Assembly: GCF_003018255.1 (NCBI RefSeq)
Contig: NZ_CP027440.1
Length of the DNA: 64,000 nt
Reading direction: 5' to 3' (one strand)
Origin: Escherichia coli
GTDB lineage: Bacteria; Pseudomonadota; Gammaproteobacteria; Enterobacterales; Enterobacteriaceae
Part shown: piece by piece, positions 15,673-56,778 of the stretch
How positions within the stretch are numbered: the first letter of the stretch is position 1
Layout of the letters: the number at the start of each line of letters is the position of its first letter
Notes under the pieces: model-generated
Seen by the model: only the letters and a program-made list of their open reading frames with translations
Database searches by the model: none
Told to the model about the DNA's origin: nothing
Program-made: the position numbers and the translations under genes

Positions 15673-15700
15673 AACGCCGCGCTCTGCGGCGTTTTTTTTC
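15673..15700 (+). terminator. glnS rho-independent terminator
   Basis: CGCCGC-gctct-GCGGCG hairpin followed by T8. Confidence 0.65.
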
Positions 15701-27050: not shown

Positions 27051-27084
27051 ATTAATAAAAGGCAGGATGTATTGAAATTAATAT

Positions 27085-27762
27085 TCAAAGCATAAACCGA
27101 TACCCAATACCGGTTTCAGTAATGAAATGGCGAGGCCGGGCCGGGTCCTGTTCCAGTTTTTGTCGCAGATGCCCCATATAAATACGCAAATAATGACTGT
27201 GTTCGACCGCGTTTGGCCCCCACACCTGGTTAAGGAGCTGGCGCTGGGTGAGCACTTTTCCCGCATTATTAAGCAACACTGCCAGCAGGCGGAACTCAAT
27301 CGGGGTGAGATGCACCTCTTCCTCGCCCCGATGGATCACACGAGCTGCTAAATCGACGGTAACATCGGAAAATTTCACCAGCGGATCGGGCGCGGCGGTG
27401 GCGGAGTGGCGACGTAAAGCGACGCGCAGACGGGCCTGCAATTCGCCAATGCCAAACGGCTTACTCAGATAATCATCCGCTCCGGCATCCAGCGCGGCGA
27501 TTTTGTCGCTCTCTTCGCTACGTGCGGAAAGCACAATCACCGGCACCGCGCTCCACTGGCGCAGGTCGCGGATAAACTCAATCCCATCACCATCGGGCAG
27601 GCCGAGATCGAGAATAATCAAATCTGGCTTACGGGTAGCCGCTTCCAGCAAGCCGCGTTGCAGCGTTTCGGCCTCAAAGACGCGCATACCGTCGCCTTCC
27701 AGCGCCGTGCGCAGAAAGCGACGAATAGCCTGTTCATCTTCAACAATCAGAACGTTTGTCAC
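27085..27762 (-). CDS. kdpE: Two-component response regulator KdpE (OmpR family)
   Basis: 225-aa ORF (M)[30 protein letters not shown]...; the start is GTG at 27762, overlapping the kdpD stop (GTGA). Confidence 0.93.
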   Translation of the reverse strand: MTNVLIVEDEQAIRRFLRTALEGDGMRVFEAETLQRGLLEAATRKPDLIILDLGLPDGDGIEFIRDLRQWSAVPVIVLSARSEESDKIAALDAGADDYLSKPFGIGELQARLRVALRRHSATAAPDPLVKFSDVTVDLAARVIHRGEEEVHLTPIEFRLLAVLLNNAGKVLTQRQLLNQVWGPNAVEHSHYLRIYMGHLRQKLEQDPARPRHFITETGIGYRFML

Positions 27763-31016: not shown

Positions 31017-33065
31017 TCACACCAGACCGCAAACGGTCAGCAGTAAATCAATGACTTTGATACCAATAAACGGCACCAGCAGCCCACCCAGACCGTAAAT
31101 CCATAAGTTACGGCGCAACATGGCAGAAGCGGTAAGCGGTTTATAACTCACGCCTTTTAACGCCAGGGGAATCAAAAAGACGATAATCAAGGCGTTGAAA
31201 ATGACCGCACTGAGAATGGCGGAGTCGGGCGAATGCAGGCGCATGATGTTCAGCGCATTTAACTGCGGATACGTTGCCGCGAACGCCGCCGGAATAATGG
31301 CGAAGTATTTCGCCACATCGTTGGCAATGCTGAAGGTGGTCAGCGAGCCACGGGTCATCAGCATCTGTTTGCCAATATGCACCACCTCGATCAACTTGGT
31401 CGGGTTAGAGTCGAGATCCACCATATTGCCCGCTTCTTTCGCCGCCTGAGTACCGGAGTTCATCGCTACCGCGACATCTGCCTGCGCCAGCGCCGGAGCA
31501 TCATTGGTGCCGTCGCCGGTCATCGCCACCAAACGGCCTTCCGCCTGATACTGACGAATTAACGCCAGCTTGGCCTCCGGTGTCGCTTCGGCGAGAAAAT
31601 CATCGACACCCGCTTCCGCAGCAATGGCGGCGGCAGTCAGACGGTTATCGCCGGTAATCATCACCGTTTTAATGCCCATTTTGCGCAGCTGGGCGAAGCG
31701 CTCTTTAATACCGCCTTTGACGATATCTTTCAGCGCAATAACGCCCAGCACACGAGAACCTTCCACCACCACCAGCGGCGTGGCCCCCTGACGCGCAACC
31801 TGATCGACTTTTTGATCAACATCGACAGGGAAGTGACCACCGTTAGCCTCAACATGGCGGCGAATGGCATCGACAGAACCTTTACGGATCATGCGGTTGT
31901 CGATATTGATCCCGCTCATTCGACTTTGCGCAGTAAACGGTACAAAAGTGGCGTGAAGCGACTGCACATCGCGCTCGCGCAGGTTAAAGCGCTGCTTGGC
32001 GAGGATCACAATACTGCGGCCTTCCGGCGTTTCGTCGGCCAGCGAAGCCAGTTGTGCTGCGTCGGCCAGCGTTTTTTCCTCTACGCCCTGCGCAGGGATA
32101 AACTCTGATGCCTGACGGTTACCGAGGGTGATGGTGCCAGTTTTATCCAGCAGCAGGACGTCCACGTCGCCCGCCGCTTCAACTGCACGCCCGCTGGTGG
32201 CAATCACATTCGCGCCCAACATCCGGCTCATCCCGGCGACGCCGATCGCTGACAACAGGCCGCCAATAGTGGTTGGGATCAGACAGACCAACAGCGCCAC
32301 CAGTACCGTTACGCTGACTGCATTACCACCCCATGCGGAAAACGGCCACAGCGTGGCGGTTGCCAGTAAAAAGACGATAGTCAGGGCAATCAGCAGGATG
32401 GTCAGGGCAATCTCGTTCGGCGTTTTGCGTCGCTGCGCGCCTTCCACCATCGCGATCATCCGATCCAGAAATGTCTCGCCGGGGTTAACGCTGCACTCAA
32501 TCACCAGCCAGTCAGAAAGAATACGCGTGCCGCCAGTGACGGAGGCAAAATCGCCGCCGGATTCACGGATCACCGGAGCCGATTCCCCGGTGATGGCGCT
32601 TTCATCGACCGATGCGCCGCCTTCAATGACTTCACCATCGCAGGGGATAATATCGCCAGCTTCTACCAGTACGATATCGCCTTTACGCAGTTGATCTGCG
32701 GGAACTTTGTCCGCCGCAGCGCCATATTTCGGCTCACGCAGCTTGCGGGCAAAGGCAGTTTTTTTCACCCCTTTCAGACTATTGGCTTGCGCTTTACTGC
32801 GGCCTTCTGCCAGCGCCTCGGCGAAATTAGCGAACAGTACGGTGACCCACAGCCAGCCGCTAATTGCCGCGCTAAACAGCGCATTGCCAGGCATCGCGCC
32901 GCTTGCCATTGCAATGCTAATAAAGGTGGTTAACAGACTGCCGATCCAGACGATAAACATCACTGGATTACGCCATTGCGCCTGCGGGTTTAATTTTTTC
33001 ACCGCTTCTTTCAGCGCCTGAACGACAAGTGTTGGTTCGAATAGCGCCAGTTGTTTACGACTCAT
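31017..33065 (-). CDS. kdpB: Potassium-transporting P-type ATPase subunit KdpB
   Basis: 682-aa ORF with DKTGT phosphorylation motif and TGDGTND hinge motif. Confidence 0.95.
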
Positions 33066-33087
33066 ATTCAGTGCTCACTCAATATCA

Positions 33088-34761
33088 TCAGGAGAGATAT
33101 TCCGCCACCGGACCAAGCGCCAGGGCAGGGATAAAGGTCAGTGCGCCAACCAGCAACACGGTGCCGATTAACAGGCCAACAAACAGCGGGCCGTGCGTTG
33201 GCAGCGTGCCGGAGCTGGCGGGCTGGCTCTTTTTACTCACCAGCGAACCGGCAATTGCCATCACCGGGATAATTACCCCGAAGCGACCGACAAACATGCA
33301 GAACGCCAGCAAACAGTTCCAGAATGGAGAGTTGGCGCTTAATCCGGCAAAGGCGCTGCCGTTGTTGTTAGCGGCGGATGACACGGCGTACAGCACTTCG
33401 CTAAAACCATGCGGGCCAGGGTTGAGCATGGCGCTACGTCCGGCGTCGGTCATCATTGCCAGCGCCGCGCCCATCAGCGCCAGCGTTGGGGTGACCAGAA
33501 TCGCCAGCGCGGTCAGTTTCATCTCGCGTACGTCGATTTTTTTACCCAGATATTCCGGTGTACGACCAATCATCAGCCCAGCAATAAACACCGCCAGCAG
33601 GACAAACAGCATCATGCCGTAAAGACCAGAACCGACACCGCCGAACACCACTTCACCAATTTGCATCAGCCACATCGGCACCATGCCACCAAGAGCGGTA
33701 AACGAATCATGCATCGCAATCACCGCGCCACAGGAAGCCGCCGTAGTCACGACCGCAAACAGGCTACTGACCAGCACGCCGAAACGACTCTCTTTACCTT
33801 CCATATTGATGCTGCTGTCCGCGCCCAGTGCCAGCAGATGCGGATTACCCTGAACTTCTGCCCACATCACCACGCCTGTGCAGATGATAAAAATCACTGA
33901 CATCGCCCACAGCAACATGCGCCCCTGACGGCGATCGCCCGCCACTTCGCCAAAGGCAAAGCACAGCGCTGTTGGGATCAAGAAGATCGCCAGCATCTGC
34001 ACGAAGTTGGTCAGTGCGGTTGGGTTTTCAAACGGATGCGACGAGTTGGCATTAAAGAAGCCACCGCCGTTAGTGCCGAGCATCTTGATCGCTTCCTGAG
34101 AAGCTACAGGCCCCATGGGTAACAGCTGTTGCGCTCCTTCAACGGTATTCACCGCCTGATAGGGCAGAAAGTTTTGCAGCGCACCTTGTTGAATAAAAAA
34201 CAATGCGATCAACAACGCCACAGGGACTAGCACCCATAACGTGATGCGTAGCAGATCGACCCAGGCATTCCCGAGTGTGCTCATGCTCTGGCGGGTAAAT
34301 GCACGTATGAGGGCAAAAATCACCGCAATCCCGCTGGCGGCAGAAAGAAAGTTTTGCACCGTTAAGCCCGCCATCTGGCTGAAATAGCTCAACGTGGTTT
34401 CACCGCTGTAAGATTGCCAGTTGGTATTTGTGACAAAGCTGACGGCGGTATTCAGCGCCAGATCCCACGACAGTCCTGGCAACTGCTGTGGATTAAGCGG
34501 CAGATAGTGCTGACCGAGCAACATAAAAAACAGCACCGCCAGCCCCAGTATATTCAGGCCAAGAATGGCTGAGAGATACTGCTTCCAGTTCATCTCGCGG
34601 TCAGAGACGCCAAGCGCGCGAAAAAGTACGCGCTCAACGCCCGTCGTACCGGGAAGAGGAATGTCATTAATCAGCCGCGCCAGCCCGCTGCCTAAAGGAC
34701 GCGCCAGCACCATTAACACCAGTAAAAACGTGGCAATCAGTAAGAACCCTTGCGCAGCCAT
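33088..34761 (-). CDS. kdpA: Potassium-transporting ATPase channel subunit KdpA
   Basis: Track ORF 33088..34905 trimmed to the ATG at 34761: [32 protein letters not shown]..., 557 aa. Confidence 0.92.
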
Positions 34762-34850
34762 CAGAACGCCTCCGCATTGATCAGGGCATAAACCAGATAA
34801 CCCAGTAATAAAAACACCAGCAACACGCCGGCTATCACGCCTGCACTCAC
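34761..34850 (-). CDS. kdpF: Small membrane subunit KdpF (29 aa)
   Basis: GTG at 34850 gives (M)[28 protein letters not shown]; its stop overlaps the kdpA ATG by 1 nt. Confidence 0.65.
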
Positions 34851-34923
34851 AGTGCACCTCCAGTGGCCTAAAAGTGATACCGGAAGAGTAGAATTCTGGC
34901 TGCAAAGATTTCGCAAAAATCTG

Positions 34924-34953
34924 CGGGCGGGGTGTAAAAAAAGTATAAAAATG
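34924..34953 (-). promoter_or_regulatory. KdpE binding site of the kdpFABC promoter
   Basis: Minus strand reads CATTTTTATACTTTTTTTACACCCCGCCCG, which I recall as the KdpE-protected sequence, about 75-105 bp upstream of the kdpF start. Confidence 0.55.
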
Positions 34954-35162
34954 GCAAAAGCCATGATTTAACTAATGTTTAGTATTAATTTAACCTTTGT
35001 GTAACTTAATTACGGTATGAATGTAAATAAACCATCAATAAGCAAAAATAAGTGGTCGGATGAGTAGTAAAATTACACAAAAGGCGGTACTATTTTCATC
35101 AGATAAACAAATTCATTTTTCCGGTGCTATTCACCGGGTAGATACAAAAGGGGGAGAAAAGT

Positions 35163-35369
35163 ATGGAACTCTACAGAGAATATCCTGCATGGCTTATCTT
35201 TTTACGCCGTACTTATGCGGTTGCAGCGGGCGTTCTGGCGCTGCCTTTCATGCTTTTCTGGAAAGACCGCGCCCGCTTTTACAGCTACCTGCACCGCGTC
35301 TGGTCGAAAACCAGCGATAAACCGGTGTGGATGGATCAGGCCGAAAAGGCGACTGGTGATTTTTACTGA
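35163..35369 (+). CDS. ybfA: Small conserved protein YbfA (DUF2517)
   Basis: 68-aa [71 protein letters not shown]. Confidence 0.85.
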
Positions 35370-35391
35370 TTGCTGAGTTCTGAATACATTG

Positions 35392-35427
35392 AAAACCGCC
35401 AGCGGAAACGCTGGCGGTTTTTTTTGT
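35392..35427 (+). terminator. ybfA rho-independent terminator
   Basis: AACCGCCAGCG-gaaa-CGCTGGCGGTT hairpin followed by T9. Confidence 0.7.
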
Positions 35428-35613
35428 ATCAGGAAGATGTTCAGAGGAATATTTAGACACCGTTATACCAATCGAAACATATATTCATGAAATATATATA
35501 AATATTTTCCTAATTGTTCTTATCTGACAGATATCTCACTTAAGGCTTTCTTATAAATCTGTAGGGTTTCGCCTGTCAGCAGACAAATAACCCGATAAAA
35601 CAAGGATGAGCAG

Positions 35614-38600
35614 ATGAGCGGAAAACCGGCGGCGCGTCAGGGCGACATGACGCAGTATGGCGGTAGCATTGTTCAGGATTCAGCCGGGGTACGTATTGGT
35701 GCCCCCACCGGCGTGGCCTGTTCGGTGTGCCCCGGCGGGGTGACGTCCGGCCATCCGGTCAATCCGCTGCTCGGTGCGAAGGTCCTTCCCGGCGAAACCG
35801 ACCTTGCCCTGCCCGGCCCGCTGCCGTTCATCCTCTCCCGCACCTACAGCAGTTACCGGACAAAAACGCCCGCGCCGGTGGGGAGCCTCGGCCCCGGCTG
35901 GAAAATGCCTGCGGATATCCGCTTACAGCTGCGCGATAACACACTGATACTCAGTGATAACGGCGGCAGAAGCCTGTATTTTGAGCACCTGTTTCCCGGT
36001 GAGGACGGTTACAGCCGCAGCGAGTCACTCTGGCTGGTGCGCGGCGGCGTGGCGAAACTGGATGAAGGTCACCGGCTGGCCGCACTCTGGCAGGCGCTGC
36101 CGGAAGAGCTTCGCCTGAGTCCGCATCGTTATCTGGCGAAGAACAGTCCGCAGGGGCCGTGGTGGGTATTCGGCTGGTGTGAGCGGGTGCCGGAGGCGGA
36201 TGAGGTGCTGCCTGCGCCGCTGCCGCCGTACCGGATACTGACCGGGCTGGTGGACCGCTTCGGGCGCACACAGACGTTTCACCGTGAGGCTGGCGGCGAA
36301 TTCAGCGGCGAAATCACCGGCGTGACCGACGGCGCAGGCCGTCACTTCCGGCTGGTACTGACCACGCAGGCGCTGCGGGCAGAAGAGGCCCGGCAGAAGG
36401 CCACTTCCGGCGGGACGGAACCGTCCGCTTTTCCTGATACCCAGCCGGACTACACGGAATATGGCCGGGACAACGGTATCCGTCTGTCTGCCGTGTGGCT
36501 GACGCACGACCCGGAATACCCGGAGAATTTACCTGCCGCGCCGCTGGTACGCTATGGCTGGACGCCGCGCGGCGAACTGGCGGCGGTGTATGACCGCAGC
36601 AATACACAGGTGCGCAGCTTTACTTACGATGATAAATACCGGGGCCGGATGGTGGCGCACCGTCACACGGGCCGGCCGGAAATCCGTTACCGTTACGACA
36701 GTGACGGGCGGGTGACAGAACAGCTAAACCCGGCAGGCTTAAGCTACACGTATCAGTATGAGAAAGACCACATCACCATCACCGACAGCCTGGACCGCCG
36801 TGAAGTGCTGCACACGCAGGGCGAAGGCGGGCTGAAGCGGGTGGTGAAAAAGGAACACGCGGACGGCAGCGTCACGCAGAGTCAGTTTGACGCGGTGGGC
36901 AGGCTTAAGGCACAGACGGATGCCGCAGGCCGGACGACTGAGTACAGCCCGGATGTGGTGACCGGACTCATCACGCGCATCACCACGCCGGATGGCAGGG
37001 CATCGGCGTTTTACTATAACCACCACAGCCAGTTAACGTCAGCCACCGGGACTGACGGGCTGGAGTTGCGCAGGGAATATGATGAATCCGGCCGTCTGAT
37101 TCAGGAAACTGCCCCTGACGGCGATATCACCCGCTACCGTTATGATAATCTACACAGTGAATTACCCTGCGCAACGGAAGATGCCACCGGCAGCCGGAAA
37201 ACCATGACATGGAGCCGTTACGGTCAGTTGCTGACCGTCACTGACTGTTCCGGTTATGTAACCCGTTATGACCATGACCGTTTTGGTCAGATGACGGCGG
37301 CGCACCGCGAGGAAGGGCTGAGTCAGTATCGCGCATACGACAGCCGTGGACAGTTAATTGCGGTGAAAGACATGCAGGGCCATGAAACGCGGTATGAATA
37401 CAACGCCGCCGGTGACCTGACCGCCGTCATTGCCCCGGACGGCAGCAGAAACGGGACACAGTACGATACGTGGGGAAAGGCCATCCGTACCACGCAGGGT
37501 GGTCTGACGCGCAGTATGGAATACGATGCTGCCGGACGGGTCATCCGCCTGACCAGTGAAAACGGCAGCCACACCACCTTCCGTTACGATGTACTCGACC
37601 GGCTGATACAGGAAACCGGCTTTGACGGCCGCACACAGCGTTATCATCACGACCTGACCGGTAAACTTATCCGCAGCGAGGATGAGGGGCTGGTCACCCA
37701 CTGGCACTATGACGAAGCAGACCGCATCACGCACCGCACCGTGAAGGGTGAAACCGCAGAACAGTGGCGGTACGACGAACGCGGCTGGCTGACACAAATC
37801 AGCCATCTCAGCGAAGGCCACCGGGTGACGGTGCATTACGGGTATGATGAGAAAGGCCGCCTGACCGGTGAGCGCCAGACGGTACATCACCCGCAGACGG
37901 AAGCACTGCTCTGGCAGCATGAGACCAGACATGCGTACAACGCGCAGGGGCTGGCGAACCGCTGTATACCGGACAGCCTGCCCGCCGTGGAATGGCTGAC
38001 TTACGGCAGCGGCTGGCTGGCAGGCATGAAACTCGGCGACACACCGCTGGTGGATTTCACCCGTGACCGCCTGCACCGGGAAACGCTGCGCAGCTTCGGC
38101 CGTTATGAACTCACCACCGCTTATACCTCTGCCGGGCAGTTACAGAGCCAGCACCTGAACAGCCTGCAGTATGACCGCGATTACACCTGGAACGACAACG
38201 GCGAACTCATCCGCATCAGCAGCCCGCGACAGACCCGGAGTTACAGCTACAGCGACTCCGGCAGGCTGACCGGCGTCCACACCACCACCTCAAATCTGGA
38301 TATCCGCATCCCGTATGCCACGGACCCGGCAGGTAACCGCCTGCCCGACCCGGAGCTGCACCCGGACAGCACCCTCAGCATGTGGCCGGATAACCGTATC
38401 GCCCGTGACGCGCACTATCTTTACCAGTATGACCGTCACGGCAGGCTGACAGAGAAAACCGACCTCATCCCGGAAGGGGTTATCCGCACGGATGATGAGC
38501 GGACTCACCGGTACCATTACGACAGCCGGCACCGGCTGGTGCACTACACGCGGACACAATATGCAGAGCCGCTGGTCGAAAGTCGCTATCTTTACGACCC

Positions 38601-39300
38601 GCTGGGGCGCAGGGTGGCAAAACGGGTATGGCGGCGTGAACGGGACCTGACGGGCTGGATGTCGCTGTCACGGAAACCGGAAGTGACCTGGTACGGCTGG
38701 GACGGCGACCGGCTGACCACAATACAGAACGACAGAACCCGCATCCAGACGGTTTATCAGCCGGGGAGCTTCACGCCACTCATCAGGGTCGAAACTGCCA
38801 CCGGTGAGCTGGCGAAAACGCAGCGCCGCAGCCTGGCGGATGCGCTTCAGCAGTCCGGCGGTGAAGACGGTGGCAGTGTGGTGTTCCCGCCGGTGCTGGT
38901 GCAGATGCTCGACCGGCTGGAAAGTGAAATCCTGGCTGACCGGGTGAGTGAGGAAAGCCGCCGCTGGCTGGCATCGTGCGGCCTGACGGTGGAGCAGATA
39001 CAAAACCAGATGGACCCGGTGTACACGCCGGCGCGAAAAATCCACCTGTACCACTGCGACCATCGCGGCCTGCCGCTGGCGCTTGTCAGCACGGAAGGGG
39101 CAACAGAATGGTGCGCAGAATACGATGAATGGGGCAACCTGCTGAATGAAGAGAACCCGCACCAGCTGCAGCAGCTCATCCGCCTGCCGGGTCAGCAGTA
39201 TGATGAGGAGTCCGGCCTGTATTACAACCGCCACCGCTATTATGACCCGCTGCAGGGGCCAGGGAAAGATCACGTAACGCTGCTTTTTTGTACTAAATAA
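35614..39300 (+). CDS. rhsC: Rhs-family protein (RhsC-like core), C-terminally truncated: no DPxGL cleavage motif and no toxin domain
   Basis: 1228-aa GC-rich ORF with a PAAR-like N-terminal motif (KPAARQGD) and many YD repeats; it ends ...[11 protein letters not shown] plus 13 unrelated residues ([13 protein letters not shown]) and a stop. Confidence 0.85.
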
Positions 39301-40312
39301 TTCGCATTTTATGTTTAAAAATTGAGATATTCCTCATTACCTAAAGCTGTTTTTCATTGCTTATACATGATCAAATACTCCTTACATAATTAAGGAGAAC
39401 AAAATGGAACTTAAAAAATTGATGGAGCATATTTCTATTATCCCAGATTACAGACAAGCCTGGAAAGTGGAACATAAATTGTCTGATATTCTACTGTTGA
39501 CTATTTGTGACGTTATTTCTGGTGCAGAAGGTTGGGAAGATATAGAGGATTTTGGGGAAACACATCTCGATTTTTTAAAACAATATGGTGATTTTGAAAA
39601 TGGTATTCCTGTTCACGATACCATTGCCAGAGTTGTATCCTGTATCAGTCCTGCAAAATTTCACGAGTGCTTTATTAACTGGATGCGTGACTGCCATTCT
39701 TCAGATGATAAAGACGTCATTGCAATTGATGGAAAAACGCTCCGGCACTCTTATGACAAGAGTCGCCGCAAGGGAGCGATTCATGTCATTAGTGCGTTCT
39801 CAACAATGCACAGTCTGGTCATCGGACAGATCAAGACGGATGAGAAATCCAATGAGATCACAGCTATCCCGGAACTTCTTAACATGCTGAATATTAAAGG
39901 AAAAATAATCACAACTGATGCGATGGGTTGCCAGAAAGATATTGCAGAGAAGATACAAAAACAGGGCGGTGATTATTTATTCGCTGTAAAAGGAAACCAG
40001 GGGCGGCTAAATAAAGCCTTCGAGGAAAAATTTCCGCTGAAAGAATTAAATAATCCAGAGCATGGCAGTTACGCAATGAGTGAAAAGAGTCACGGCAGAG
40101 AAGAAATCCGTCTTCATATTGTTTGCGATGTCCCTGATGAACTTATTGATTTCACGTTTGAATGGAAAGGGCAGCCATGGACAGAAAATATCTGGCGTCA
40201 GTCCTTGCGGGGAGCGTGCTTTCGTAATTTTGCCCTGCTACAACAGGATTAACTTCACAAACATCATTTGCCAACGTCTACACTTACTCCTGTTAATATC
40301 TCAGGAGCAGTA
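39301..40312 (+). mobile_element. H-repeat (ISAs1-family) element remnant with an internal deletion
   Basis: AT-rich left end, then an ISAs1-like transposase ORF; the expected C-terminus ([18 protein letters not shown]) is present but in the +1 frame near 40171..40230, implying an internal deletion of roughly 0.3 kb. Confidence 0.65.
39404..40252 (+). pseudogene. ybfD: H-repeat-associated (ISAs1-family) transposase, frameshifted by an internal deletion (YbfD-like)
   Basis: 282-aa [35 protein letters not shown]...; about 250 aa are transposase-like, then an out-of-frame tail [26 protein letters not shown]. Confidence 0.7.
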
Positions 40313-47139: not shown

Positions 47140-47931
47140 ATGCCTGAAGGCCCGGAGATCCGCCGTGCAGCGGATAACCTGGAGGCGGCGATCAAAGGCA
47201 AACCACTAACTGATGTCTGGTTTGCCTTCCCGCAGTTAAAACCTTATCAATCACAACTTATCGGTCAACACGTTACCCATGTGGAAACGCGTGGTAAGGC
47301 GTTGTTAACTCATTTTTCCAACGACTTAACGCTCTACAGCCATAATCAGCTTTACGGCGTCTGGCGCGTGGTTGATACCGGCGAAGAGCCGCAGACTACG
47401 CGAGTATTGCGGGTAAAACTGCAAACGGTTGACAAAACCATTCTGCTTTATAGCGCCTCGGATATTGAGATGTTGACGCCGGAACAACTGATCACGCATC
47501 CGTTTTTACAACGAGTCGGCCCCGATGTGCTGGATCCGAATCTGACGCCGGAGGTGGTAAAGGAACGGTTATTGTCGCCGCGCTTTCGTAACCGTCAGTT
47601 TGCTGGATTACTGCTCGATCAGGCGTTTCTGGCTGGGCTTGGCAATTATTTGCGGGTGGAGATCCTCTGGCAGGTTGGGTTGACTGGAAATCATAAAGCG
47701 AAAGATCTCAGTGCGGCGCAACTGGATGCACTCGCACACGCGTTACTGGATATTCCTCGATTTTCCTACGCTACGCGGGGGCAGGTGGATGAGAATAAGC
47801 ATCATGGGGCGCTGTTTCGCTTTAAGGTTTTTCATCGTGATGGCGAACTGTGCGAACGCTGTGGCGGCATCATTGAGAAAACCACGCTGTCATCTCGCCC
47901 GTTTTACTGGTGCCCTGGCTGTCAGCACTAG
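47140..47931 (+). CDS. nei: Endonuclease VIII (DNA glycosylase/AP lyase)
   Basis: 263-aa [31 protein letters not shown]... (N-terminal PEGPE catalytic motif), C-terminal zinc finger CERCG...CPGCQ. Confidence 0.95.
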
Positions 47932-48974
47932 GCCGTACGTTTCGGCGCATAGGTTGAAATAAACCGCGCAATGGCAGGTCCCGTCAGCAAAATACTGAAC
48001 AGGCGCAGGGTTTGCATCGCCATGATGAGCGCCATATCGGCATTGCTCCCTGCGGCGATGACCGCCACGGTATCAAGCCCGCCGGGGCTGGTGGCGAGGT
48101 AGGCGGTCATAAAATCAATATGCATAAACCGGGTCAGCCCCCACGCCATACCCGCACAAATAGCCAGCAGAGCAAAAATCGACAGCAGGATTTGCGGTAG
48201 CGGGCGCAATGCCCGCAGTAAGATTTGTTTATCGAAACCAAGACCAATCCGCCAACCAATTGCCATATACGCCATCGCAAGCAGCCATTCCGGTAGTTCG
48301 ATGGTGATGAGCTGACCAGACTGGAGCACTGCGCCCGCCAGCATCGGGATGAGCATCGTGCCGGAAGGAAGACGTAGCAAGCATCCCACTGTACCGGCAA
48401 CGACCGCGAGCAAAATCGTAAGCAGGAGATTAATGCTCACTGGCGGAAACCAGACGATCTGCTGGTTAACCGCTTCAGCGTTATCGCCCAGCATCATGCG
48501 GGTGACCAGAACAGCGGCCCCTGCGACGAACAGCACTCGCAGATATTGCATAAACGCCACCAGGCGAATATCTGCGCCGTAATCTTGCGCCATAGCGACC
48601 ATTGCCGCCGCGCCGCCAGGAGAAGAACCCCAGGCACCGGTATTTCCAGGCAGTGAGCTATAGCGCACCAATAACCAACCCACGATGGCGCTGGAAAGTA
48701 ACGTCACCAGTAAAATAGCTAACACAATCGGCCAGTTCACCGCTAGCGTGGTCAGGATCGAACCGGTCAGGTTTTGCGCAATCATGCAGCCAAGAATGGC
48801 CTGGGCGGCGAGAAAAGCGGAGCGGGGAAGTTGCAGAGTAATTCCGCGCATACTAAAGATGATCCCGGCGATCATCGGCCCAAGTAATAGCGCCGCCGGG
48901 AGATGAACCGCGAGGAAACCAATTGAAAGGAGAAGTGAGAGCACACATAACATTCCCCACTGCAAAACTGGCAT
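47928..48974 (-). CDS. abrB: AbrB-family inner membrane protein (regulator of aidB)
   Basis: Track ORF 47928..49052 trimmed to the ATG at 48974: [37 protein letters not shown]..., 348 aa; its 3' end overlaps the nei stop by 4 nt (convergent). Confidence 0.85.
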
Positions 48975-49089
48975 CCTTCGTTCCCTCATTATTTTTTCTT
49001 TGGTGTATCGATACAGCATAAAGAAAGCCGGGCCAGGAAAAAATAACAGCAATCAAGGAAAAGGGGAAAATCAGCAATTTTCTGAAAGA

Positions 49090-49118
49090 GAGGCCCTTTA
49101 CTAACTGCAAAGGGCATC
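49090..49118 (-). terminator. Putative terminator hairpin downstream of ybgO
   Basis: GCCCTTT-actaactgc-AAAGGGC stem-loop just after the ybgO stop; the U-tract is weak. Confidence 0.35.
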
Positions 49119-49126
49119 ATGATAAA

Positions 49127-50188
49127 TTAGTTATAGTTAATCTTAAAAAGCACCACTGTATCGAAGGGACCCGCTTCGATGGGGGTGCCGGGAATGGACG
49201 AAAGTTCAGCCGTATAGGTTTTTTCGTAGATCAGCATATCGCTGGTGAAATCAGCATATTCGCTGTATTTGTTGAAAGTATAGGGTGAAGAATTTTCATC
49301 CAGCAAACGTAGCTTCAGTCCATTACCAATCAGCAGTGCTTTATCCTCTTCAATCAATGTTTCTTCGGTATAAAACGAAGAGCTGACCTTAAATCCGTCG
49401 GTGCACTGGTCATTTTGTGATTTTGTCGTCTTAATACTGAATGTTTTCGACATTGTGTGGCGGCGAATATCCAGCAGGTTAAATTTACCAAAATCAATCA
49501 CCTGTGTTTCTGGTGAAATAGAAAAATTGACGCTGCAATCCAGTACACGAATGTTTTCCAGACCAGTAATATGGTATTTCAGGTTTTGGGCGGTAGGGTC
49601 TTCGTTAACGCTACCGGCACCATCAAATTGCACGACGATGTAGTCGCTAAGCGAACTTTGATAATCATGCGGCGGTATTTCGCGAATCTTAACGTATAAC
49701 CGCATACGAGCAAGAAAGGTTCGCGACATGTGAATATTAGCGGGGTCACCCGAGCATATTTTGTTCTGCCAGCCCATCGCGATAATCTGCTCAGGGGTAT
49801 AAATGTTAATGTTCTTACTGTCGATACACTGGTTGGTGTCGATGCGGCTTTTCCCCAGACTGGCATCGTAATCGACACCATTGTATGTCACGCCGAGTTG
49901 ATAATAACGATCCTGTACCCCCGGGTAGGGGTTTACCCATGCGTAGACATGTTCGCTTTCAAAGTTGCCGTTGGTATTGTTGTCACAATAGACGGGAATT
50001 TTAATATCGTCAGATTCCCAGATCTTATCGCCGGGTTTGGCATTACCTGGCACAGCAAAGGGTTGAATCGCTTCCGATTTTTCTACCGTTCCGCCGGAAG
50101 TACCAAAATAGCAGTTCAGCGCTAGCGCAGACTTCAATGGCAGAAATACCAGACAGATGACGAGCAACACTCCCTTGCCAGCACTCAT
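49127..50188 (-). CDS. ybgO: Putative fimbrial adhesin-like protein (tip subunit of the ybgD operon)
   Basis: Track ORF 49127..50218 trimmed to the ATG at 50188: [23 protein letters not shown]... (signal peptide), 353 aa; last gene of the chaperone-usher operon. Confidence 0.8.
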
Positions 50189-50916
50189 TTCTTCGCCTCC
50201 ACTGCTTGTAAACGGCATTGTCCGCTGCAGTTGAGCGTCGTCATGCGTAACGCGCCGTAATCATCCATATAACCGAGATAAAACTGACTGCCGCTATAAC
50301 TTCCGGTGTTTGTAATTACTGTACTAAAAGGCGCAACCATCACGGTTTTGAAGCCGGGAAGAACGCCTTTTTCATTTCTCCCCAGATAGGCAATGGTCAG
50401 ATAATACGCGGTAGGATTTTTCAGTGTCAGTTGGTTGCCCTGCTGGCTGACCTGTAACTGCAGTTCGACCTTTTCTCCTGCTTTCTTGCGTAATGCAGCC
50501 GGTCGCCAGAATACCTTGATACGACTCTGAATGGCGACTTGCAGAACGGCATGGCCGCTGTTTTTTTCTGGGGAGGGAGGAATTTCACGCATATTGTAGA
50601 AAAATAGCGTTTCGCGATCGCCCGGTAATTTTGTGGTCGAGGCTTGCTTTACTATCCGTACCTGCGTTGTTGCTTTCGGTTCCAGACGTTGTATCGGTGG
50701 CAGGGCAACCAGAAGATCATCGCTTTTCTCCCCTTTTTCATTTTCGAGCCAGGAATAAGCGAGGTAGGGGAGTTTATCGCTACGATTATCCACGCGCAGA
50801 CTGGTAGCTTTATCATTAGCGTTAAACACAATACGAGTGCGATCGGGTTGTAGTGCAGCGTGGCTGCACAGACTGGCAACCAACAACAAAAGGGGTAGTC
50901 CTTTCATAAATGTCAT
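50185..50916 (-). CDS. ybgP: Periplasmic fimbrial chaperone (PapD-like)
   Basis: Track ORF 50185..50940 (TTG start); ATG at 50916 has the best-spaced AAGGA: [20 protein letters not shown].... The exact start is uncertain (50922 and 50907 are alternatives). Confidence 0.8.
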
Positions 50917-50930
50917 TTTCATTTCCTTAA

Positions 50931-53390
50931 TTAATGACAAGGTAAAATCAGGCGATTTGCGGTGTCTTCCATATGTTCAGGAAGATGGAGCGAGCAACGC
51001 TGGCTATCACCCCAGATCACGGTAAATTGTTGATTTTCAGCGACTCCGCTTAACCAGGCATGTCCTTCCTCGCCAACCATCCCCACGCTAATGCCGCTGT
51101 TATCCTGGCGGATATCCGCACCGAGGGGAGGGAACTGACCGCTGGCGTTGCGAATGATGACGTTAACGTCTTTACCGGAACGGGAAGCCAGCGATTTGTA
51201 ACCTATCGCGCCTTCAATCCACGTTTCTTTGATAACGTTTTCTGCCACTGTTACGCCGTCGGGTAAGTCATTCATGTTCACCGCCACGGTGGAAGGCTGA
51301 TAACTGGAAATCAACGGCACCACCGCAATGCCAAAATGGTTGGTGTAGTCGAGATTGCCCTGAACCGGAATATCTGCCACGCCATCGGTACTGACCATCA
51401 GACGTGGTTCATTGGTGGAGCTGCGACGATGGAACGCCGCACCATATTGAGTTGCCGTGAAAGAACCGCTCCAGCTGCTGCTGACGGAACTGTAATCATT
51501 GGCGGCATAGGTACCAGAAATATCCCACTCACCCGCTGAACTCAGGTGCTGATAGTTACCGCTCACCTGGGCTCCATTATCCGGACGGTCGGATTGCAGT
51601 CCGGTAGACATGCCCCAGCTATTACGTTCATCTAACGTATCATTCCACGACATGCGGTGCGTGGTGCTGTGACTACTGTTTTGCATGTCATAACCGACCC
51701 GCCCCCCGTTACCGAAGGGGAGCGAAATCGACAGGTAAATCTGATTGTCGCGATCTTTATCTTCGTAATGGGTTGTATTGAATGACGTCGAGATCGAGAT
51801 ATCTCTCCAGTTACCAATATCAACATTAAAACCCGCCGTGATGTTGGCGGTCGTGGAGGCGTCTGCATTCCACCAGGTTTGATGCAGCAGGTTGGCGTAC
51901 AGATTGAGGTTCAGTGGGGTAATCGGTTGGCCCACGGATAAGCTGATCGTCTGTTTTTCGTCCTGCGCATCGCTGTTGTTGTATTTGTGATCCAGATAGT
52001 TGGCGTAGCTGTGAAAATGACGATCGGAGAAACGATAAGCGGCGAGCGAAATCGTGCTGTCGGTGGCATCCACTTGTTTGCTGTAATTAAAGCGGTAACT
52101 TAAGCCCCGCTCGTCCTGCTGAGTATCAAACTGACTACTGGCCCACGTGACATCAAACGACAATGCACCAAGCCACAGCATATTTTGCCCGATACCCATT
52201 GCGGCAGAATGGTAGTCGTCACCCGAAATCAGCAGGCCGCCGTACAGTGAGGTATTTGACAGCATCCCCCAGGAAACTTCATTGCTAAAAAAGGTTTCAT
52301 TTTCAGTTTGATGAGACATAGATGTTCGCGGCTGACCGGCAGCAAGTTTATAGCGAACCTGCCCCTGGCGCGTAAGGAAAGGCGTCGATGCTGCCGAAAC
52401 CTGGAAATTGTTCGCCCGACCATCTTCTTCCGTCACTTTGACATCTAACGTACCCTGGACGGACTGATTAAGGTCATCAATGATAAACGGACCTGGTGGG
52501 ACTTTCTTCTGGTAAATAACTCGCCCTGAGTGACTCACGGTGACGGTGGCGTTGGTTTGTGCAATGCCGCTGATTTGTGGGGCGTAGCCGCGTAGCTCCC
52601 ACGGTAACATCCGATCGTCACTTGCCAGTGCCGCGCCGGTATAAGAAAAGCCGTCGAAAATATTGGAACTGAAATCCGTTTCACCAAGGGTTAATTTTGA
52701 ACCTAATTGCGGTAATGGACGAAAAAGATAGGTGCGTGATATTTCGCCTGACTGTTCATGGTTATCATCGCTATCGGTCTGATTCAATTGGTAATCACTG
52801 CGTAAACGCCATGCTCCCGCGTTAATTCCGGCTGTTCCATAGGCGTTCAGGTTAGTGCTGTTGCTACCATCCTGTGGGCGGTAGCTGCTTGCAAACAGGT
52901 TGTAGTCCATCAGGACGCCGGCGACACCTTCTTTCCATGTTGAGGGGGGAGTCCAGTTATCTGAGTGCCACGCCAGCCAGGCTTGTGGAATAGTGATATT
53001 CAGTTGCTGGCTAGCCTGATCAAAAATGAAGAGAATTTCAGGCCGGGAGCTAAAATCGACGCACTGGTTTAACCGTGGTAACGACTGACGAACTTCAGGT
53101 TTTAAACCAAATTTATCTACCAGTAAATCATTAATACACGGAATGGTTTGGTCACCGTTCTTTTTCCAGTCAATTTTTTGTCCGTTACTGATTTGGTTGT
53201 TATTTACTGCAACGCTAACAAAATATTCACCGGGAACAATGACCCCTTTTCCCTTTAATAATGAAATATCAATGCGATCTCGCATCGATTTATCGAGGAC
53301 ATTCAGGTTGAATTCGACCGCCAATGCGCAAGGCATCGCCATGACCAGACAGGATATAAAAGAGAGTCGATAAATATTCACGGTGTCCAT
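50931..53390 (-). CDS. ybgQ: Outer membrane fimbrial usher
   Basis: About 820-aa ORF; the first ATG at 53390 gives MDTVNIYRLSFISCLVMAMPCALA...; large beta-barrel usher architecture. Confidence 0.85.
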   Translation of the reverse strand: MDTVNIYRLSFISCLVMAMPCALAVEFNLNVLDKSMRDRIDISLLKGKGVIVPGEYFVSVAVNNNQISNGQKIDWKKNGDQTIPCINDLLVDKFGLKPEVRQSLPRLNQCVDFSSRPEILFIFDQASQQLNITIPQAWLAWHSDNWTPPSTWKEGVAGVLMDYNLFASSYRPQDGSNSTNLNAYGTAGINAGAWRLRSDYQLNQTDSDDNHEQSGEISRTYLFRPLPQLGSKLTLGETDFSSNIFDGFSYTGAALASDDRMLPWELRGYAPQISGIAQTNATVTVSHSGRVIYQKKVPPGPFIIDDLNQSVQGTLDVKVTEEDGRANNFQVSAASTPFLTRQGQVRYKLAAGQPRTSMSHQTENETFFSNEVSWGMLSNTSLYGGLLISGDDYHSAAMGIGQNMLWLGALSFDVTWASSQFDTQQDERGLSYRFNYSKQVDATDSTISLAAYRFSDRHFHSYANYLDHKYNNSDAQDEKQTISLSVGQPITPLNLNLYANLLHQTWWNADASTTANITAGFNVDIGNWRDISISTSFNTTHYEDKDRDNQIYLSISLPFGNGGRVGYDMQNSSHSTTHRMSWNDTLDERNSWGMSTGLQSDRPDNGAQVSGNYQHLSSAGEWDISGTYAANDYSSVSSSWSGSFTATQYGAAFHRRSSTNEPRLMVSTDGVADIPVQGNLDYTNHFGIAVVPLISSYQPSTVAVNMNDLPDGVTVAENVIKETWIEGAIGYKSLASRSGKDVNVIIRNASGQFPPLGADIRQDNSGISVGMVGEEGHAWLSGVAENQQFTVIWGDSQRCSLHLPEHMEDTANRLILPCH

Positions 53391-53440
53391 ACCTGATAAA
53401 TATTTGAAGAAAGGCAGCGATAGCGCCGCCAAAGTGATAC

Positions 53441-54007
53441 TTATTTATAATCCAGCACGTAGGTTGCATTCGCCGTAACTGCACCTGGCGTTACAGGTGT
53501 TGCCTGATCAATTTGTTCCATCCAGGCAAAGAAATTCAGCGTTTGCTCGCTGGAGGTCGGAGCCAGGTCGATATCTGGAGTCGCGGTGCCTAAAACGATA
53601 TTGCTTTGATCTTTATTCATTAAACGCACGCCGACACCGGTGGCTTCACCCGTGCTGGTGTTGTTGAGAATCGGATCTGCGCCGGTGGTTTTCGCTGAGC
53701 TGTCAAAGGTGACTGCAACTTTAGAAATCTTGCCGCCGGAACCGTTGTTGGAGTTTTCCAAATCGCAGTTGACTAAGCGCAGGTCGACAGCAACGGCATC
53801 GCTGTGATGTGACTGATTAATGTGGCTGGTGGTCACCTGACCGAGTTCAACCTCTTTATCAATATCATCCTGATGTATTTCACACGGTGCTTCAATAACT
53901 TCACCTTTAAAGTGAATTTCACCGGATCCTTCATCAGCCGCATAAACAGGTGCTGTGAATAGCAGAGATATGGCCAGTGCGGCCAATGTTTTTTGTCCTT
54001 TAAACAT
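53441..54007 (-). CDS. ybgD: Fimbrial major subunit (FimA-like pilin)
   Basis: Track ORF 53441..54094 trimmed to the ATG at 54007: MFKGQKTLAALAISLLFTAPVYA (signal peptide), 188 aa, C-terminal ...ATYVLDYK donor-strand-type tail. Confidence 0.85.
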   Translation of the reverse strand: MFKGQKTLAALAISLLFTAPVYAADEGSGEIHFKGEVIEAPCEIHQDDIDKEVELGQVTTSHINQSHHSDAVAVDLRLVNCDLENSNNGSGGKISKVAVTFDSSAKTTGADPILNNTSTGEATGVGVRLMNKDQSNIVLGTATPDIDLAPTSSEQTLNFFAWMEQIDQATPVTPGAVTANATYVLDYK

Positions 54008-54334
54008 AGCTGAGTCCTTTAAATAATGAGATAGAGTGTTGCGAGGCAAGAATATATTAACTGACAGTTGAATGTATTTGGTTTTATTTAACAATATTAA
54101 AAAGCTTGTTATATAAAGAATGGAATAATTGAGTGCATAAATTTATTGTTTAATGAGATGAAAGATGGGGTGGGATGGATATGCATAATTTTCATTGGGT
54201 TAACAATGCTACCGGCAGGAAAGTAAAAAAATAAACTTATCATTCTGCTCAGTATGTGGCTTGTCACATTTTTTCACCTTATTAATGGGTATTTGCATCT
54301 GGTTTAATTTTTACAATTTATTATGTTCAGCCAT

Positions 54335-54368
54335 ATAAAAAAGAACCCGCTCTATTAAAGGCGGGTCC
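54335..54368 (-). terminator. gltA rho-independent terminator
   Basis: Minus strand reads GGACCCGC-ctttaataga-GCGGGTTC followed by T6, 30 bp after the gltA stop. Confidence 0.6.
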
Positions 54369-54396
54369 GGAAAGTAAACGGCTTAGCAATCAACCA

Positions 54397-55680
54397 TTAA
54401 CGCTTGATGTCGCTTTTAAAGTCGCGTTTTTCATATCCTGTATACAGTTGACGCGGACGGGCAATCTTCATACCGTCACTGTGCATTTCGCTCCAGTGGG
54501 CGATCCAGCCAACGGTGCGTGCCATAGCGAAGATCACGGTGAACATAGAAGACGGAATACCCATCGCTTTCAGGATGATACCAGAGTAGAAATCGACGTT
54601 CGGATAGAGTTTCTTCTCGATAAAGTACGGGTCGTTCAGCGCGATGTTTTCCAGCTCCATAGCCACTTCCAGCAGGTCATCTTTGGTACCCAGCTCTTTC
54701 AGCACTTCATGGCAGGTTTCACGCATTACGGTGGCGCGCGGGTCGTAATTTTTGTACACGCGGTGACCGAAGCCCATCAGGCGGAAAGAATCATTTTTAT
54801 CTTTCGCACGACGAACAAATTCCGGAATGTGTTTAACGGAGCTGATTTCTTCCAGCATTTTCAGCGCCGCTTCGTTAGCACCACCGTGCGCAGGTCCCCA
54901 CAGTGAAGCAATACCTGCTGCGATACAGGCAAACGGGTTCGCCCCCGAAGAGCCAGCGGTACGCACGGTGGAGGTGGAGGCGTTCTGTTCATGGTCAGCG
55001 TGCAGGATCAGAATACGGTCCATAGCACGTTCCAGAATCGGATTAACTTCATACGGTTCGCACGGCGTAGAGAACATCATATTCAGGAAGTTACCGGCGT
55101 AGGAGAGATCGTTGCGCGGGTAAACAAATGGCTGACCAATGGAATACTTGTAACACATCGCGGCCATGGTCGGCATTTTCGACAGCAGGCGGAACGCGGC
55201 AATTTCACGGTGACGAGGATTGTTAACATCCAGCGAGTCGTGATAGAACGCCGCCAGCGCGCCGGTAATACCACACATGACTGCCATTGGATGCGAGTCG
55301 CGACGGAAAGCATGGAACAGACGGGTAATCTGCTCGTGGATCATGGTATGACGGGTCACCGTAGTTTTAAATTCGTCATACTGTTCCTGAGTCGGTTTTT
55401 CACCATTCAGCAGGATGTAACAAACTTCCAGGTAGTTAGAATCGGTCGCCAGCTGATCGATCGGGAAACCGCGGTGCAGCAAAATACCTTCATCACCATC
55501 AATAAAAGTAATTTTAGATTCGCAGGATGCGGTTGAAGTGAAGCCTGGGTCAAAGGTGAATACACCTTTTGAACCGAGAGTACGGATATCAATAACATCT
55601 TGACCCAGCGTGCCTTTCAGCACATCCAGTTCAACAGCTGTATCCCCGTTGAGGGTGAGTTTTGCTTTTGTATCAGCCAT
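54397..55680 (-). CDS. gltA: Citrate synthase
   Basis: 427-aa [50 protein letters not shown]... Confidence 0.97.
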
Positions 55681-56388
55681 TTAAGGTCTCCTTAGCGCCT
55701 TATTGCGTAAGACTGCCGGAACTTAAATTTGCCTTCGCACATCAACCTGGCTTTACCCGTTTGTTATTTGGCTCGCCGCTCTGTGAAAGAGGGGAAAACC
55801 TGGGTACAGAGCTCTGGGCGCTTGCAGGTAAAGGATCCATTGATGACGAATAAATGGCGAATCAAGTACTTAGCAATCCGAATTATTAAACTTGTCTACC
55901 ACTAATAACTGTCCCGAATGAATTGGTCAATACTTCCACACTGTTACATAAGTTAATCTTAGGTGAAATACCGACTTCATAACTTTTACGCATTATATGC
56001 TTTTCCTGGTAATGTTTGTAACAACTTTGTTGAATGATTGTCAAATTAGATGATTAAAAATTAAATAAATGTTGTTATCGTGACCTGGATCACTGTTCAG
56101 GATAAAACCCGACAAACTATATGTAGGTTAATTGTAATGATTTTGTGAACGGCCTATACTGCCGCCAGGTCTCCGGAACACCCTGCAATCCCGAGCCACC
56201 CAGCGTTGTAACGTGTCGTTTTCGCATCTGGAAGCAGTGTTTTGCATGACGCGCAGTTATAGAAAGGACGCTGTCTGACCCGCAAGCAGACCGGAGGAAG
56301 GAAATCCCGACGTCTCCAGGTAACAGAAAGTTAACCTCTGTGCCCGTAGTCCCCAGGGAATAATAAGAACAGCATGTGGGCGTTATTC
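55681..56388. promoter_or_regulatory. gltA-sdhC divergent intergenic control region
   Basis: 708-bp AT-rich spacer between divergent TCA-cycle operons; it holds the divergent promoters and, from the literature, the sdhC leader targeted by small RNAs. Individual sites were not resolved. Confidence 0.5.
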
Positions 56389-56778
56389 ATGATAAGAAAT
56401 GTGAAAAAACAAAGACCTGTTAATCTGGACCTACAGACCATCCGGTTCCCCATCACGGCGATAGCGTCCATTCTCCATCGCGTTTCCGGTGTGATCACCT
56501 TTGTTGCAGTGGGCATCCTGCTGTGGCTTCTGGGTACCAGCCTCTCTTCCCCTGAAGGTTTCGAGCAAGCTTCCGCGATTATGGGCAGCTTCTTCGTCAA
56601 ATTTATCATGTGGGGCATCCTTACCGCTCTGGCGTATCACGTCGTCGTAGGTATTCGCCACATGATGATGGATTTTGGCTATCTGGAAGAAACATTCGAA
56701 GCGGGTAAACGCTCCGCCAAAATATCCTTTGTTATTACTGTCGTGCTTTCACTTCTCGCAGGAGTCCTCGTATGGTAA
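56389..56778 (+). CDS. sdhC: Succinate dehydrogenase cytochrome b556 subunit
   Basis: Track ORF 56374..56778 trimmed to the ATG at 56389: [34 protein letters not shown]..., 129 aa. Confidence 0.92.

Follow-up and report, generated by a model that had tools for sequence, protein, structure and literature searches.

An intact allele of the four-gene ybgDQPO chaperone-usher operon in Escherichia coli, preceded by an AT-rich and probably H-NS-silenced spacer

The window, a 64,000-nucleotide stretch of Escherichia coli contig NZ_CP027440.1 (assembly GCF_003018255.1), carries the genes ybgD, ybgQ, ybgP and ybgO, flanked by gltA on one side and abrB-nei on the other, the same neighbours as in K-12. 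Between positions 49000 and 54500, it shows 100% identity to strain JNE23-011, whose annotation names the genes ybgO, ybgP, ybgQ and 'fimbrial protein'. A sequence-only reading of this DNA had proposed a fimbrial operon with four uninterrupted reading frames, signal peptides and overlapping or closely spaced junctions. We found no internal stops in any of the four minus-strand genes, and Pfam domains and the JNE23-011 annotation agree with the gene identities and order proposed. The ybgP/ybgO junction is a 4-nt overlap (ATGA), the ybgQ/ybgP gap is 14 nt and the ybgD/ybgQ gap is 50 nt, with a GC-rich hairpin inside. Sec-like signal peptides, with cleavage sites assigned by eye, begin all four proteins (YbgD ...APVYA/ADEG, YbgQ ...PCALA/VEFN, YbgP ...LCSHA/ALQP and YbgO ...KSALA/LNCY). 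Only the end coordinate given, 54400, needed trimming, as it runs 4 nt into gltA. The gltA-abrB/nei position and the ybgQ-type usher correspond to the Ybg type as defined by Wurpel et al. 2013, and the operon is filed in the literature as a pi-class, core-associated chaperone-usher operon. An Rfam scan of positions 48800-56400, with E values up to 1, retrieved zero RNA families.

Table 1. Features of the ybgDQPO locus, in window coordinates. Genes follow the RefSeq annotation of the identical JNE23-011 locus.
Feature	Position	Strand	Description
gltA intrinsic terminator	54337-54368	(-)	GGACCCGCC...GCGGGTTC then TTTTTT; inside the spacer; predicted from sequence
AT-rich gltA-ybgD spacer	54008..54396	(-)	Presumed site of promoter, long leader and H-NS nucleation
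ybgD	53441-54007	(-)	Major pilin, 188 aa, signal peptide 1-23
ybgD-ybgQ hairpin	53413..53430	(-)	GC-rich stem then T-rich tract, directly 3' of the ybgD stop; GGCGGCGCTATCGCTGCC + TTTCTTCAAA
ybgQ	50931-53390	(-)	Outer-membrane usher, 819 aa
ybgP	50185-50916	(-)	Periplasmic PapD-like chaperone, 243 aa
ybgO	49127-50188	(-)	Two-domain tip adhesin, 353 aa
YbgO receptor-binding domain	49538-50119	(-)	~Residues 24-217
YbgO pilin domain	49130-49537	(-)	~Residues 218-353
Operon terminator hairpin	49093..49115	(-)	Downstream of ybgO; GCCCTTTGCAGTTAGTAAAGGGC then CTCTCTTTCA

The closest published counterpart is the K-12 Ybg system (Korea et al. 2010; Wurpel et al. 2013), which has the same genes, order, orientation and gltA-ybgDQPO-abrB site, protein lengths within one residue, an AT-rich spacer and an inter-gene hairpin. 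However, the window carries a different allele: nucleotide identity to K-12 is 87.5% over the operon, compared with 97-100% in the flanks, and ~65% over the spacer. Protein identity is 78.7% for YbgD, 90.1% for YbgP, 93.7% for YbgQ and 96.9% for YbgO. Among the four proteins, YbgD varies most (72.3% identical to its counterpart in an O157-like allele) and YbgO least.

YbgQ contains the complete domain set of an usher, comprising the N-terminal domain (PapC_N, 5e-32), the barrel with its plug (Usher, 6.5e-187, profile positions 2-548 of 549) and the C-terminal domain (PapC_C, 7e-13), and the ybg usher is placed in the pi clade by the literature (Nuccio and Baumler scheme). Its closest solved relative is PapC, matched over its full length (residues 25-818) with 525 bits, followed by FimD with 273 bits. 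YbgP has the two Ig-like domains of a chaperone (PapD_N, 3e-34; PapD_C, 5e-14), with PapD as its closest solved relative (170 bits; FimC, 104 bits). By eye, its mature position 8 is an Arg (ALQPDRTR), which would be paired with the Lys of RIKVFWRP, taken here as the equivalent of Lys112 of PapD. YbgD carries a Fimbrial domain (6e-30), with FimA (7e-17) and PapA (3e-14) as its best solved relatives, and shows the marks of a polymerising pilin: a donor-strand-like GEIHFKGEVI near the mature N-terminus and a penultimate Tyr in the C-terminus ...YVLDYK. P (Pap) fimbriae, the pi-clade prototype, provide the closest solved relatives of both YbgQ and YbgP, and likewise combine a two-domain tip adhesin with a major pilin.

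The C-terminus of YbgO gave a weak match to the Pfam Fimbrial family (5.6e-5, below the Pfam cut-off). Its predicted structure comprises two domains, the nearest folds being the fimbrial receptor-binding domains of LpfD, CupB6, FimH and PapG. The adhesin had been described as uncharacterised, which no longer applies at the structural level: entries 9RX0 (residues 24-222) and 9RWW (residues 24-217) of the PDB sequence file closely match its N-terminal domain, with 8 differences in the printed alignment, and the solved constructs begin at residue 24. This solved domain, together with the two-domain model, is what is expected of a two-domain tip adhesin. A literature search, including 'YbgO' from 2022 on, found no paper on structures 9RX0, 9RWW, 9RWU and 9RWE, and these entries were absent among the matches listed from the Foldseek PDB library (releases to 2026-04-08). 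A comparison among strains had been expected to reveal variation in the receptor-binding domain; none appeared, YbgO being the best conserved of the four proteins. As ybgDQPO had a name, a class and an annotation before this analysis, and the PDB sequence file already includes its adhesin domain, its identification in the window adds little in itself.

Two hairpins accompany the coding sequences. The 62 nt around the ybgD-ybgQ hairpin fold at -14 kcal/mol (z -2.1). When alleles and orthologues were folded separately, a hairpin was present at this position in 8 out of 8, with differing stem sequences. RNAalifold recovered 4 pairs on a MAFFT alignment of this intergenic spacer, a low number because the stems are out of register in the alignment. 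Pap operons also have a stem-loop after the pilin gene, and a hairpin follows the pilin gene in all three of the non-E. coli operons examined from the zupT-ribB site, described below. Position and conservation suggest that the hairpin may be a partial terminator or an mRNA stabiliser setting the pilin:usher ratio. At the end of the operon, the 51 nt around the terminator downstream of ybgO fold at -15.6 kcal/mol (z -2.9).

Upstream of ybgD lies a region that the sequence-only reading described as ~390 bp of strongly AT-rich DNA with A/T tracts, an apt description. The spacer measures 389 bp and has a GC content of 0.324, compared with 0.522 window-wide; only 0.17% of the window's 389-nt stretches reach this AT content, and the lowest value in the window (0.311) comes from a stretch overlapping the spacer region. 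Within the spacer, seven A or T runs are 4 nt or longer, twelve stretches of 8 nt or more consist of A and T alone, and there are two near-matches to TCGATAAATT, with 2 mismatches each. Such AT-rich, tract-rich regulatory DNA is characteristic of H-NS-silenced loci. Nevertheless, the spacer cannot be equated as a whole with a promoter, given that its 5' end is the gltA terminator. The 76 nt surrounding this terminator fold at -23.7 kcal/mol (z -3.6), and both the K-12 and the O157-like allele retain its stem and T-run in an otherwise diverged spacer.

The promoter scan returned a single sigma-70-like match within the spacer, a weak one (GTGACA-17-AATGAT, 54267-54239), and promoter-like matches in the region totalled 6, against 9.1 expected from shuffled sequence. 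On both counts, no promoter can be assigned. The promoter detected by genomic SELEX in K-12 (TAAACA-16-TAAAAT) is not preserved in this haplotype, where it is degraded to TGAACA-16-TTAAAC. Searches of the spacer for tandem, inverted and direct repeats yielded no invertible switch and no repeat array. A fim-type invertible switch was discarded, as there are only weak imperfect inverted repeats (75-85% complementary) and no recombinase gene nearby. A Pap-type Dam/Lrp phase switch was likewise discarded because positions 54008-54396 hold no GATC site, and the gltA-ybgD interval is free of regulator genes. A 52-codon GTG ORF (54109-54267) was dismissed as a by-product of AT-rich sequence, given the low identity of the spacer between alleles (~65%) and the lack of a RefSeq annotation.

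In K-12, the ybgD/gltA spacer figures among 78 'promoter islands' (entry 751980_413) and is H-NS-bound in all the ChIP-chip sets compared, its H-NS column reading 'A', that is, all studies (Panyukov and Ozoline 2013, PMC3661553). According to genomic SELEX, it also holds an H-NS site and an RpoD promoter (PMC3946193), and the chaperone-usher fimbriae of commensal E. coli have been called cryptic and H-NS-repressed (PMC3559732). The window spacer matches this K-12 island in position, length and AT content and differs in haplotype. According to the literature, Ybg is poorly expressed in laboratory K-12, and ybgD rises upon BolA overproduction. In HUS-associated STEC isolates, all four ybg genes are 1.6-2.3 log2 higher. 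The K-12 operon, when expressed, reportedly promotes adhesion, as told in papers that cite Korea et al. 2010.

The proposal that the operon is probably silent through H-NS agrees with the published K-12 data. For the window haplotype, whose spacer differs so much from that of K-12, H-NS silencing is an extrapolation from composition, and we regard it as probable. The AT composition shared with K-12 suggests that the operon is most likely off in standard culture and on under particular conditions or regulators. Routine transcription of ybg in this strain, from a spacer haplotype differing from the silenced K-12 one, is an unlikely alternative. It gains from the low spacer identity, from the circulation of four or more classes of spacer haplotype, among them window-type, K-12, ES8-type and O157-type, which move between strains independently of the pilin gene, and from ybg transcript levels that vary among STEC isolates under identical growth conditions. 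Nonetheless, the window spacer retains the extreme AT content typical of H-NS targets and lacks a good sigma-70 consensus in the promoter scan, both of which argue against routine transcription. The description 'silent in K-12' should not be carried over to strains with other promoter haplotypes.

Taken together, the region is very probably the E. coli ybgDQPO locus at its usual site, a minimal four-gene pi (Pap-like) operon for a fimbria assembled through the Sec, chaperone and usher route, with an AT-rich spacer that most likely keeps it off in standard culture, and not a relic. By analogy with the well-studied pathway, YbgD, YbgO, YbgP and YbgQ would be exported via Sec, and YbgP would cap the periplasmic subunits as a PapD-like chaperone. 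The usher YbgQ would take the two-domain adhesin YbgO first, as the tip, and then build the shaft by polymerising YbgD through donor-strand exchange. Transcription is expected to start within the AT-rich spacer, and the hairpin 3' of ybgD probably leaves more pilin message than usher message. As the K-12 spacer is H-NS-bound and yields little transcript in the laboratory, the same would be expected here from composition.

The operon had also been described as horizontally acquired, a claim that fared less well. In its strongest form, ybg would be a foreign island of recent import, with the AT content of the spacer reflecting nothing more than the composition of foreign DNA. The site does show presence/absence polymorphism, the GC content of ybgO is slightly low (0.449), and GIST and two gene-level predictors classed the K-12 genes as alien (PMC3661553). 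However, the gene bodies have a near-genomic GC content of 0.45-0.50, and the borders are free of mobility genes, tRNA and repeats. Moreover, the same gltA-side site is occupied in organisms in which gltA, nei and pxp are 73-86% identical to E. coli; there, the operon adjoins gltA (85% identical) and nei (73-86%), leaving recent acquisition unsupported. Relatives ~60% identical in Enterobacter, Citrobacter and Kluyvera are also chromosomal, at a conserved zupT-ribB site. These operons, present in some E. coli as well, share the identical four-gene pilin-usher-chaperone-adhesin architecture but are much more divergent and lie at another chromosomal site; their adhesins are 349-357 aa long, and identity to YbgO is 56-62% for those of Enterobacter, Citrobacter and Kluyvera but drops to 37% for those of some E. 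coli. We, thus, consider a recent import very unlikely. The data are consistent with long residence of the locus, its alleles being exchanged by homologous recombination.

Given its poor expression in laboratory K-12, ybg might be taken for a cryptic relic that is turning into a pseudogene, unused and intact by chance. The locus is not intact in many strains (Wurpel et al., PMC3559732), some genomes retain only a ybgO fragment or have another island at the site, and ybgO is a pseudogene in Shigella flexneri 2457T. An operon at least 80% complete was found in 4157 out of 5426 complete genomes; the ~23% of genomes without one, together with the existence of truncated YbgO clusters, indicate that the fimbria is dispensable in some lineages. 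Nevertheless, the four frames have stayed open across alleles whose dS is 0.36-1.9, compared with 0.06-0.2 in the flanks, under strong purifying selection (dN/dS 0.04-0.12), which largely refutes decay. The operon was intact in 9 out of 9 alleles examined, and same-site orthologous operons of more distant organisms are mostly full-length, the usher gene of one of them being called short (773 aa, without a PapC_C match). A relic is, thus, very unlikely: very old alleles, intact and strongly constrained, indicate that ybgDQPO is not decaying. Along with the conserved adhesin and a diversified, reshuffled pilin and spacer, they imply production and use of the fimbria in nature. Known as 'cryptic' from laboratory work, it bears the marks of continued use and is thereby a sensible choice for studying colonisation of the gut or the environment.

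It is possible, and we propose it tentatively, that ybg is a long-lived balanced polymorphism of exchangeable modules, namely the promoter spacer, the pilin, the usher/chaperone and the adhesin. If so, the 'cryptic' fimbria would be expressed in hosts, with immune or phage pressure acting on the shaft, a single conserved receptor and regulation that differs by lineage. Variation is greatest in the pilin and the promoter spacer, which recombine as modules. No segment of the locus is more polymorphic than the spacer, whose mean pairwise difference is 0.27. Between E. coli haplotypes, identity is 71-75% for the pilin and 54-65% for the spacer, near the divergence between genera, whereas divergence in the flanking genes is just 1-3%. 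In strain MB52, the K-12 adhesin and chaperone occur together with the B-type pilin, and strains ES8 and EC19 pair the window-type pilin with another spacer. Of the two pilins, that of the window is more frequent than that of K-12, being present in 2814 out of 4185 carrier genomes.

The operon is the named ybgDQPO of Escherichia coli, an already known feature, and consists of four uninterrupted reading frames between gltA and abrB (see table). Gene coordinates were taken from the RefSeq annotation of strain JNE23-011, which is 100% identical to the window across 49000-54500 and differs from it by one base in 11.5 kb. Gaps of 50 nt and 14 nt separate ybgD from ybgQ and ybgQ from ybgP, respectively, while ybgP and ybgO overlap by 4 nt. 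All four proteins carry at their N-terminus a plausible Sec signal peptide, as read by eye. Every particular of the sequence-only reading (four intact genes, signal peptides, close junctions and an AT-rich upstream region) was borne out. Downstream, nei (+) and abrB (-) are convergent, and their 3' ends share 4 nt (47928-47931).

Features of the ybg locus and of other parts of the window
Feature	Position	Strand	Remarks
ybgD	53441-54007	-	188 aa; Pfam Fimbrial domain
ybgQ	50931-53390	-	819 aa; Pfam PapC_N, Usher, PapC_C
ybgP	50185-50916	-	243 aa; Pfam PapD_N, PapD_C
ybgO	49127-50188	-	353 aa; Pfam Fimbrial domain weak, C-terminal
abrB	47928-48974	-	
gltA	54397-55680	-	
gltA-ybgD spacer	54008-54396		GC 0.324
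Spacer ORF	54109-54267	-	52 codons, GTG start; probably spurious
WP_001305582.1	55886-55993	-	35-codon 'hypothetical protein' (RefSeq)
Rhs region	32759-40171		Annotation from comparison locus L020
AT-rich stretch in Rhs region	39188-39772		GC 0.33
Other AT-rich stretches	26629-27252 and 15605-16133		GC 0.32-0.34

Ybg has been described as a 'core-associated' E. coli chaperone-usher fimbria with a single locus, found mainly in commensal and diarrhoeagenic strains, many strains being without an intact copy (Wurpel et al., PMC3559732); elsewhere in the literature it is classed as a pi-clade system. In agreement with that class, the best solved relative of the usher YbgQ is PapC (525 bits, vs 273 for FimD) and that of the chaperone YbgP is PapD (170 bits, vs 104 for FimC). 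The outer-membrane assembly of YbgQ has been studied experimentally and is TAM-dependent.

The specificity of the adhesin YbgO had been taken as uncharacterised; structures of its receptor-binding domain exist. Two chains in the PDB sequence file (2026), 9RX0 and 9RWW ('Fimbrial protein'), match YbgO residues 24-222 and 24-217, respectively (E ~1e-129), with 8 differences from the window protein in the printed alignment; the same file holds entries for two more distant relatives (9RWU, 9RWV and 9RWE). The solved constructs start at residue 24, in agreement with the predicted cleavage after SALA. A literature search found no paper mentioning 9RX0, 9RWW, 9RWU or 9RWE, and these entries were absent among the matches listed from the Foldseek library (releases to April 2026). 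AlphaFold predicts two beta domains for full-length YbgO (model pLDDT 88.6), and the best Foldseek matches of this model are the full-length tip adhesins LpfD, CupB6, CsuE, FimH, PapG and CfaE. YbgO therefore acts as a tip adhesin, and its receptor-binding domain belongs, though distantly, to the usual fold family. The variation among strains expected in that domain is not concentrated there: YbgO is the most conserved of the four proteins (96.9% identity to K-12), and its variable sites are spread evenly across both domains.

At least 80% of the operon was present in 4,157 out of 5,426 complete genomes, and ybgD in 4,185. The pilin was of the window type (at least 95% identity) in 2,814 genomes and of the K-12 or O157 type (60-80% identity) in 1,335, and in 1,332 most of the spacer length was of the window type. 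Some genomes beyond the set with at least 80% of the operon keep just the 3' part of ybgO. In other E. coli, ybg is replaced between gltA and abrB by a sugar-acid island with genes for GntR, RraA, an alcohol dehydrogenase, an SDR protein, UxaA and a TRAP transporter. These two arrangements were seen in comparison loci at the position corresponding to window 49000-54396 (L005, 1112-8917; L004, 9127-9522).

The window operon is 87.5% identical to the K-12 allele and 77% to the O157-type allele, vs 97-100% for the flanking gltA, sdh, abrB and nei. Synonymous divergence in ybg reaches 0.36-1.4 relative to K-12 and 1.5-1.9 relative to the O157 type, against 0.06-0.2 in gltA and abrB. All four genes have dN/dS values of 0.04-0.12, and the operon was intact in nine out of nine E. 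coli alleles examined. The most variable protein is YbgD (78.7% identity to K-12), and within the locus polymorphism is highest in the spacer (mean pairwise difference 0.27). The locus is a recombination mosaic, as observed when window 49127-54396 was compared with eight other loci (L002, L003 and L013-L018). Strain MB52 combines K-12 YbgO and YbgP proteins with a B-strain YbgD, and ES8 and EC19 carry a window-type ybgD (97.7% identity) behind an unrelated-looking spacer, 64% identical to that of the window. A long-lived, modular balanced polymorphism is a tentative reading that we hold to be somewhat improbable; if true, it would mean that the operon is expressed inside hosts, from promoters that differ by lineage.

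The AT-rich upstream region had also been read as the signature of horizontal acquisition, which these comparisons disfavour as a recent event. In metagenomic contigs the same operon adjoins gltA (85% identical to E. coli) and nei (73%), and in a more distant organism (L012) it adjoins abrB-nei-pxp (84-86%), with GntR/RraA sugar-acid genes upstream. The ybg gene bodies have a GC content of 0.45-0.50, and the RefSeq annotation of the identical locus shows no mobility genes beside the operon. The locus looks long established, with homologous recombination exchanging its alleles, and not recently imported. Adhesins 56-62% identical to YbgO belong to four-gene operons at zupT-ribB (Enterobacter, Citrobacter, Kluyvera), and a 37%-identical relative occupies zupT-ribB in some E. 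coli. The zupT-ribB loci L006, L007, L008 and L019 form a second pilin-usher-chaperone-adhesin operon family.

The gltA-ybgD spacer, whose gltA-proximal end is formed by the gltA terminator, lies in the most AT-rich part of the window (overall GC 0.522). Its K-12 counterpart is one of 78 'promoter islands', a class with very low transcriptional output, was scored as H-NS-bound by all studies compared and was linked to predicted foreign genes (PMC3661553). In genomic SELEX, the K-12 spacer yielded a site for H-NS as well as a promoter for RpoD (TAAACA-16-TAAAAT) (PMC3946193). The window spacer is ~65% identical to it and keeps the AT-rich composition; the SELEX promoter is degraded, and a promoter scan returned a single weak sigma-70 match. 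The window spacer has no GATC sites, and repeat searches found no switch-like repeats in it. The window allele is probably silent through H-NS; this is the best inference, the published data being on the K-12 allele, with a spacer of this limited identity. The earlier interpretation is supported with corrections: the AT-rich composition and the K-12 H-NS records favour silencing, but binding was shown for the K-12 allele only, recent import is disfavoured and the YbgO domain has been solved. Published data report that ybgD is raised by BolA overproduction and that non-O157 STEC isolates associated with HUS show higher expression of all four genes; according to papers citing Korea et al. 2010, the K-12 operon promotes adhesion once expressed. 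The ORF within the spacer is probably spurious, since it is unannotated in RefSeq and its segment is ~65% identical between alleles.

Past the ybgD stop codon lies a GC-rich hairpin that ends in a T-rich tail; another hairpin lies 3' of ybgO. A stable, GC-rich stem-loop no more than ~25 nt past the pilin stop was present in eight out of eight alleles and orthologues folded, with differing stem sequences. By analogy with the hairpins of other fimbrial operons, the post-ybgD hairpin would probably attenuate read-through or stabilise the pilin message, giving an excess of pilin over usher.

Elsewhere in the window, WP_001305582.1 lies in the AT-rich control region between the divergent gltA and sdhC, is identical in K-12 and the O157-type strain and may be the small protein YbgU. 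The Rhs region contains an Rhs element with a core gene annotated as frameshifted. After this element come genes for an NTF2-fold immunity protein and a DUF6258 protein, an orphan C-terminal fragment of Rhs, and ybfD, a truncated ISAs1 transposase; the region includes another very AT-rich stretch. Two further stretches come close to the ybgD spacer in AT content: the first is within kdpD, and the second covers the 5' end of uof and part of fldA together with the spacer between these two genes.
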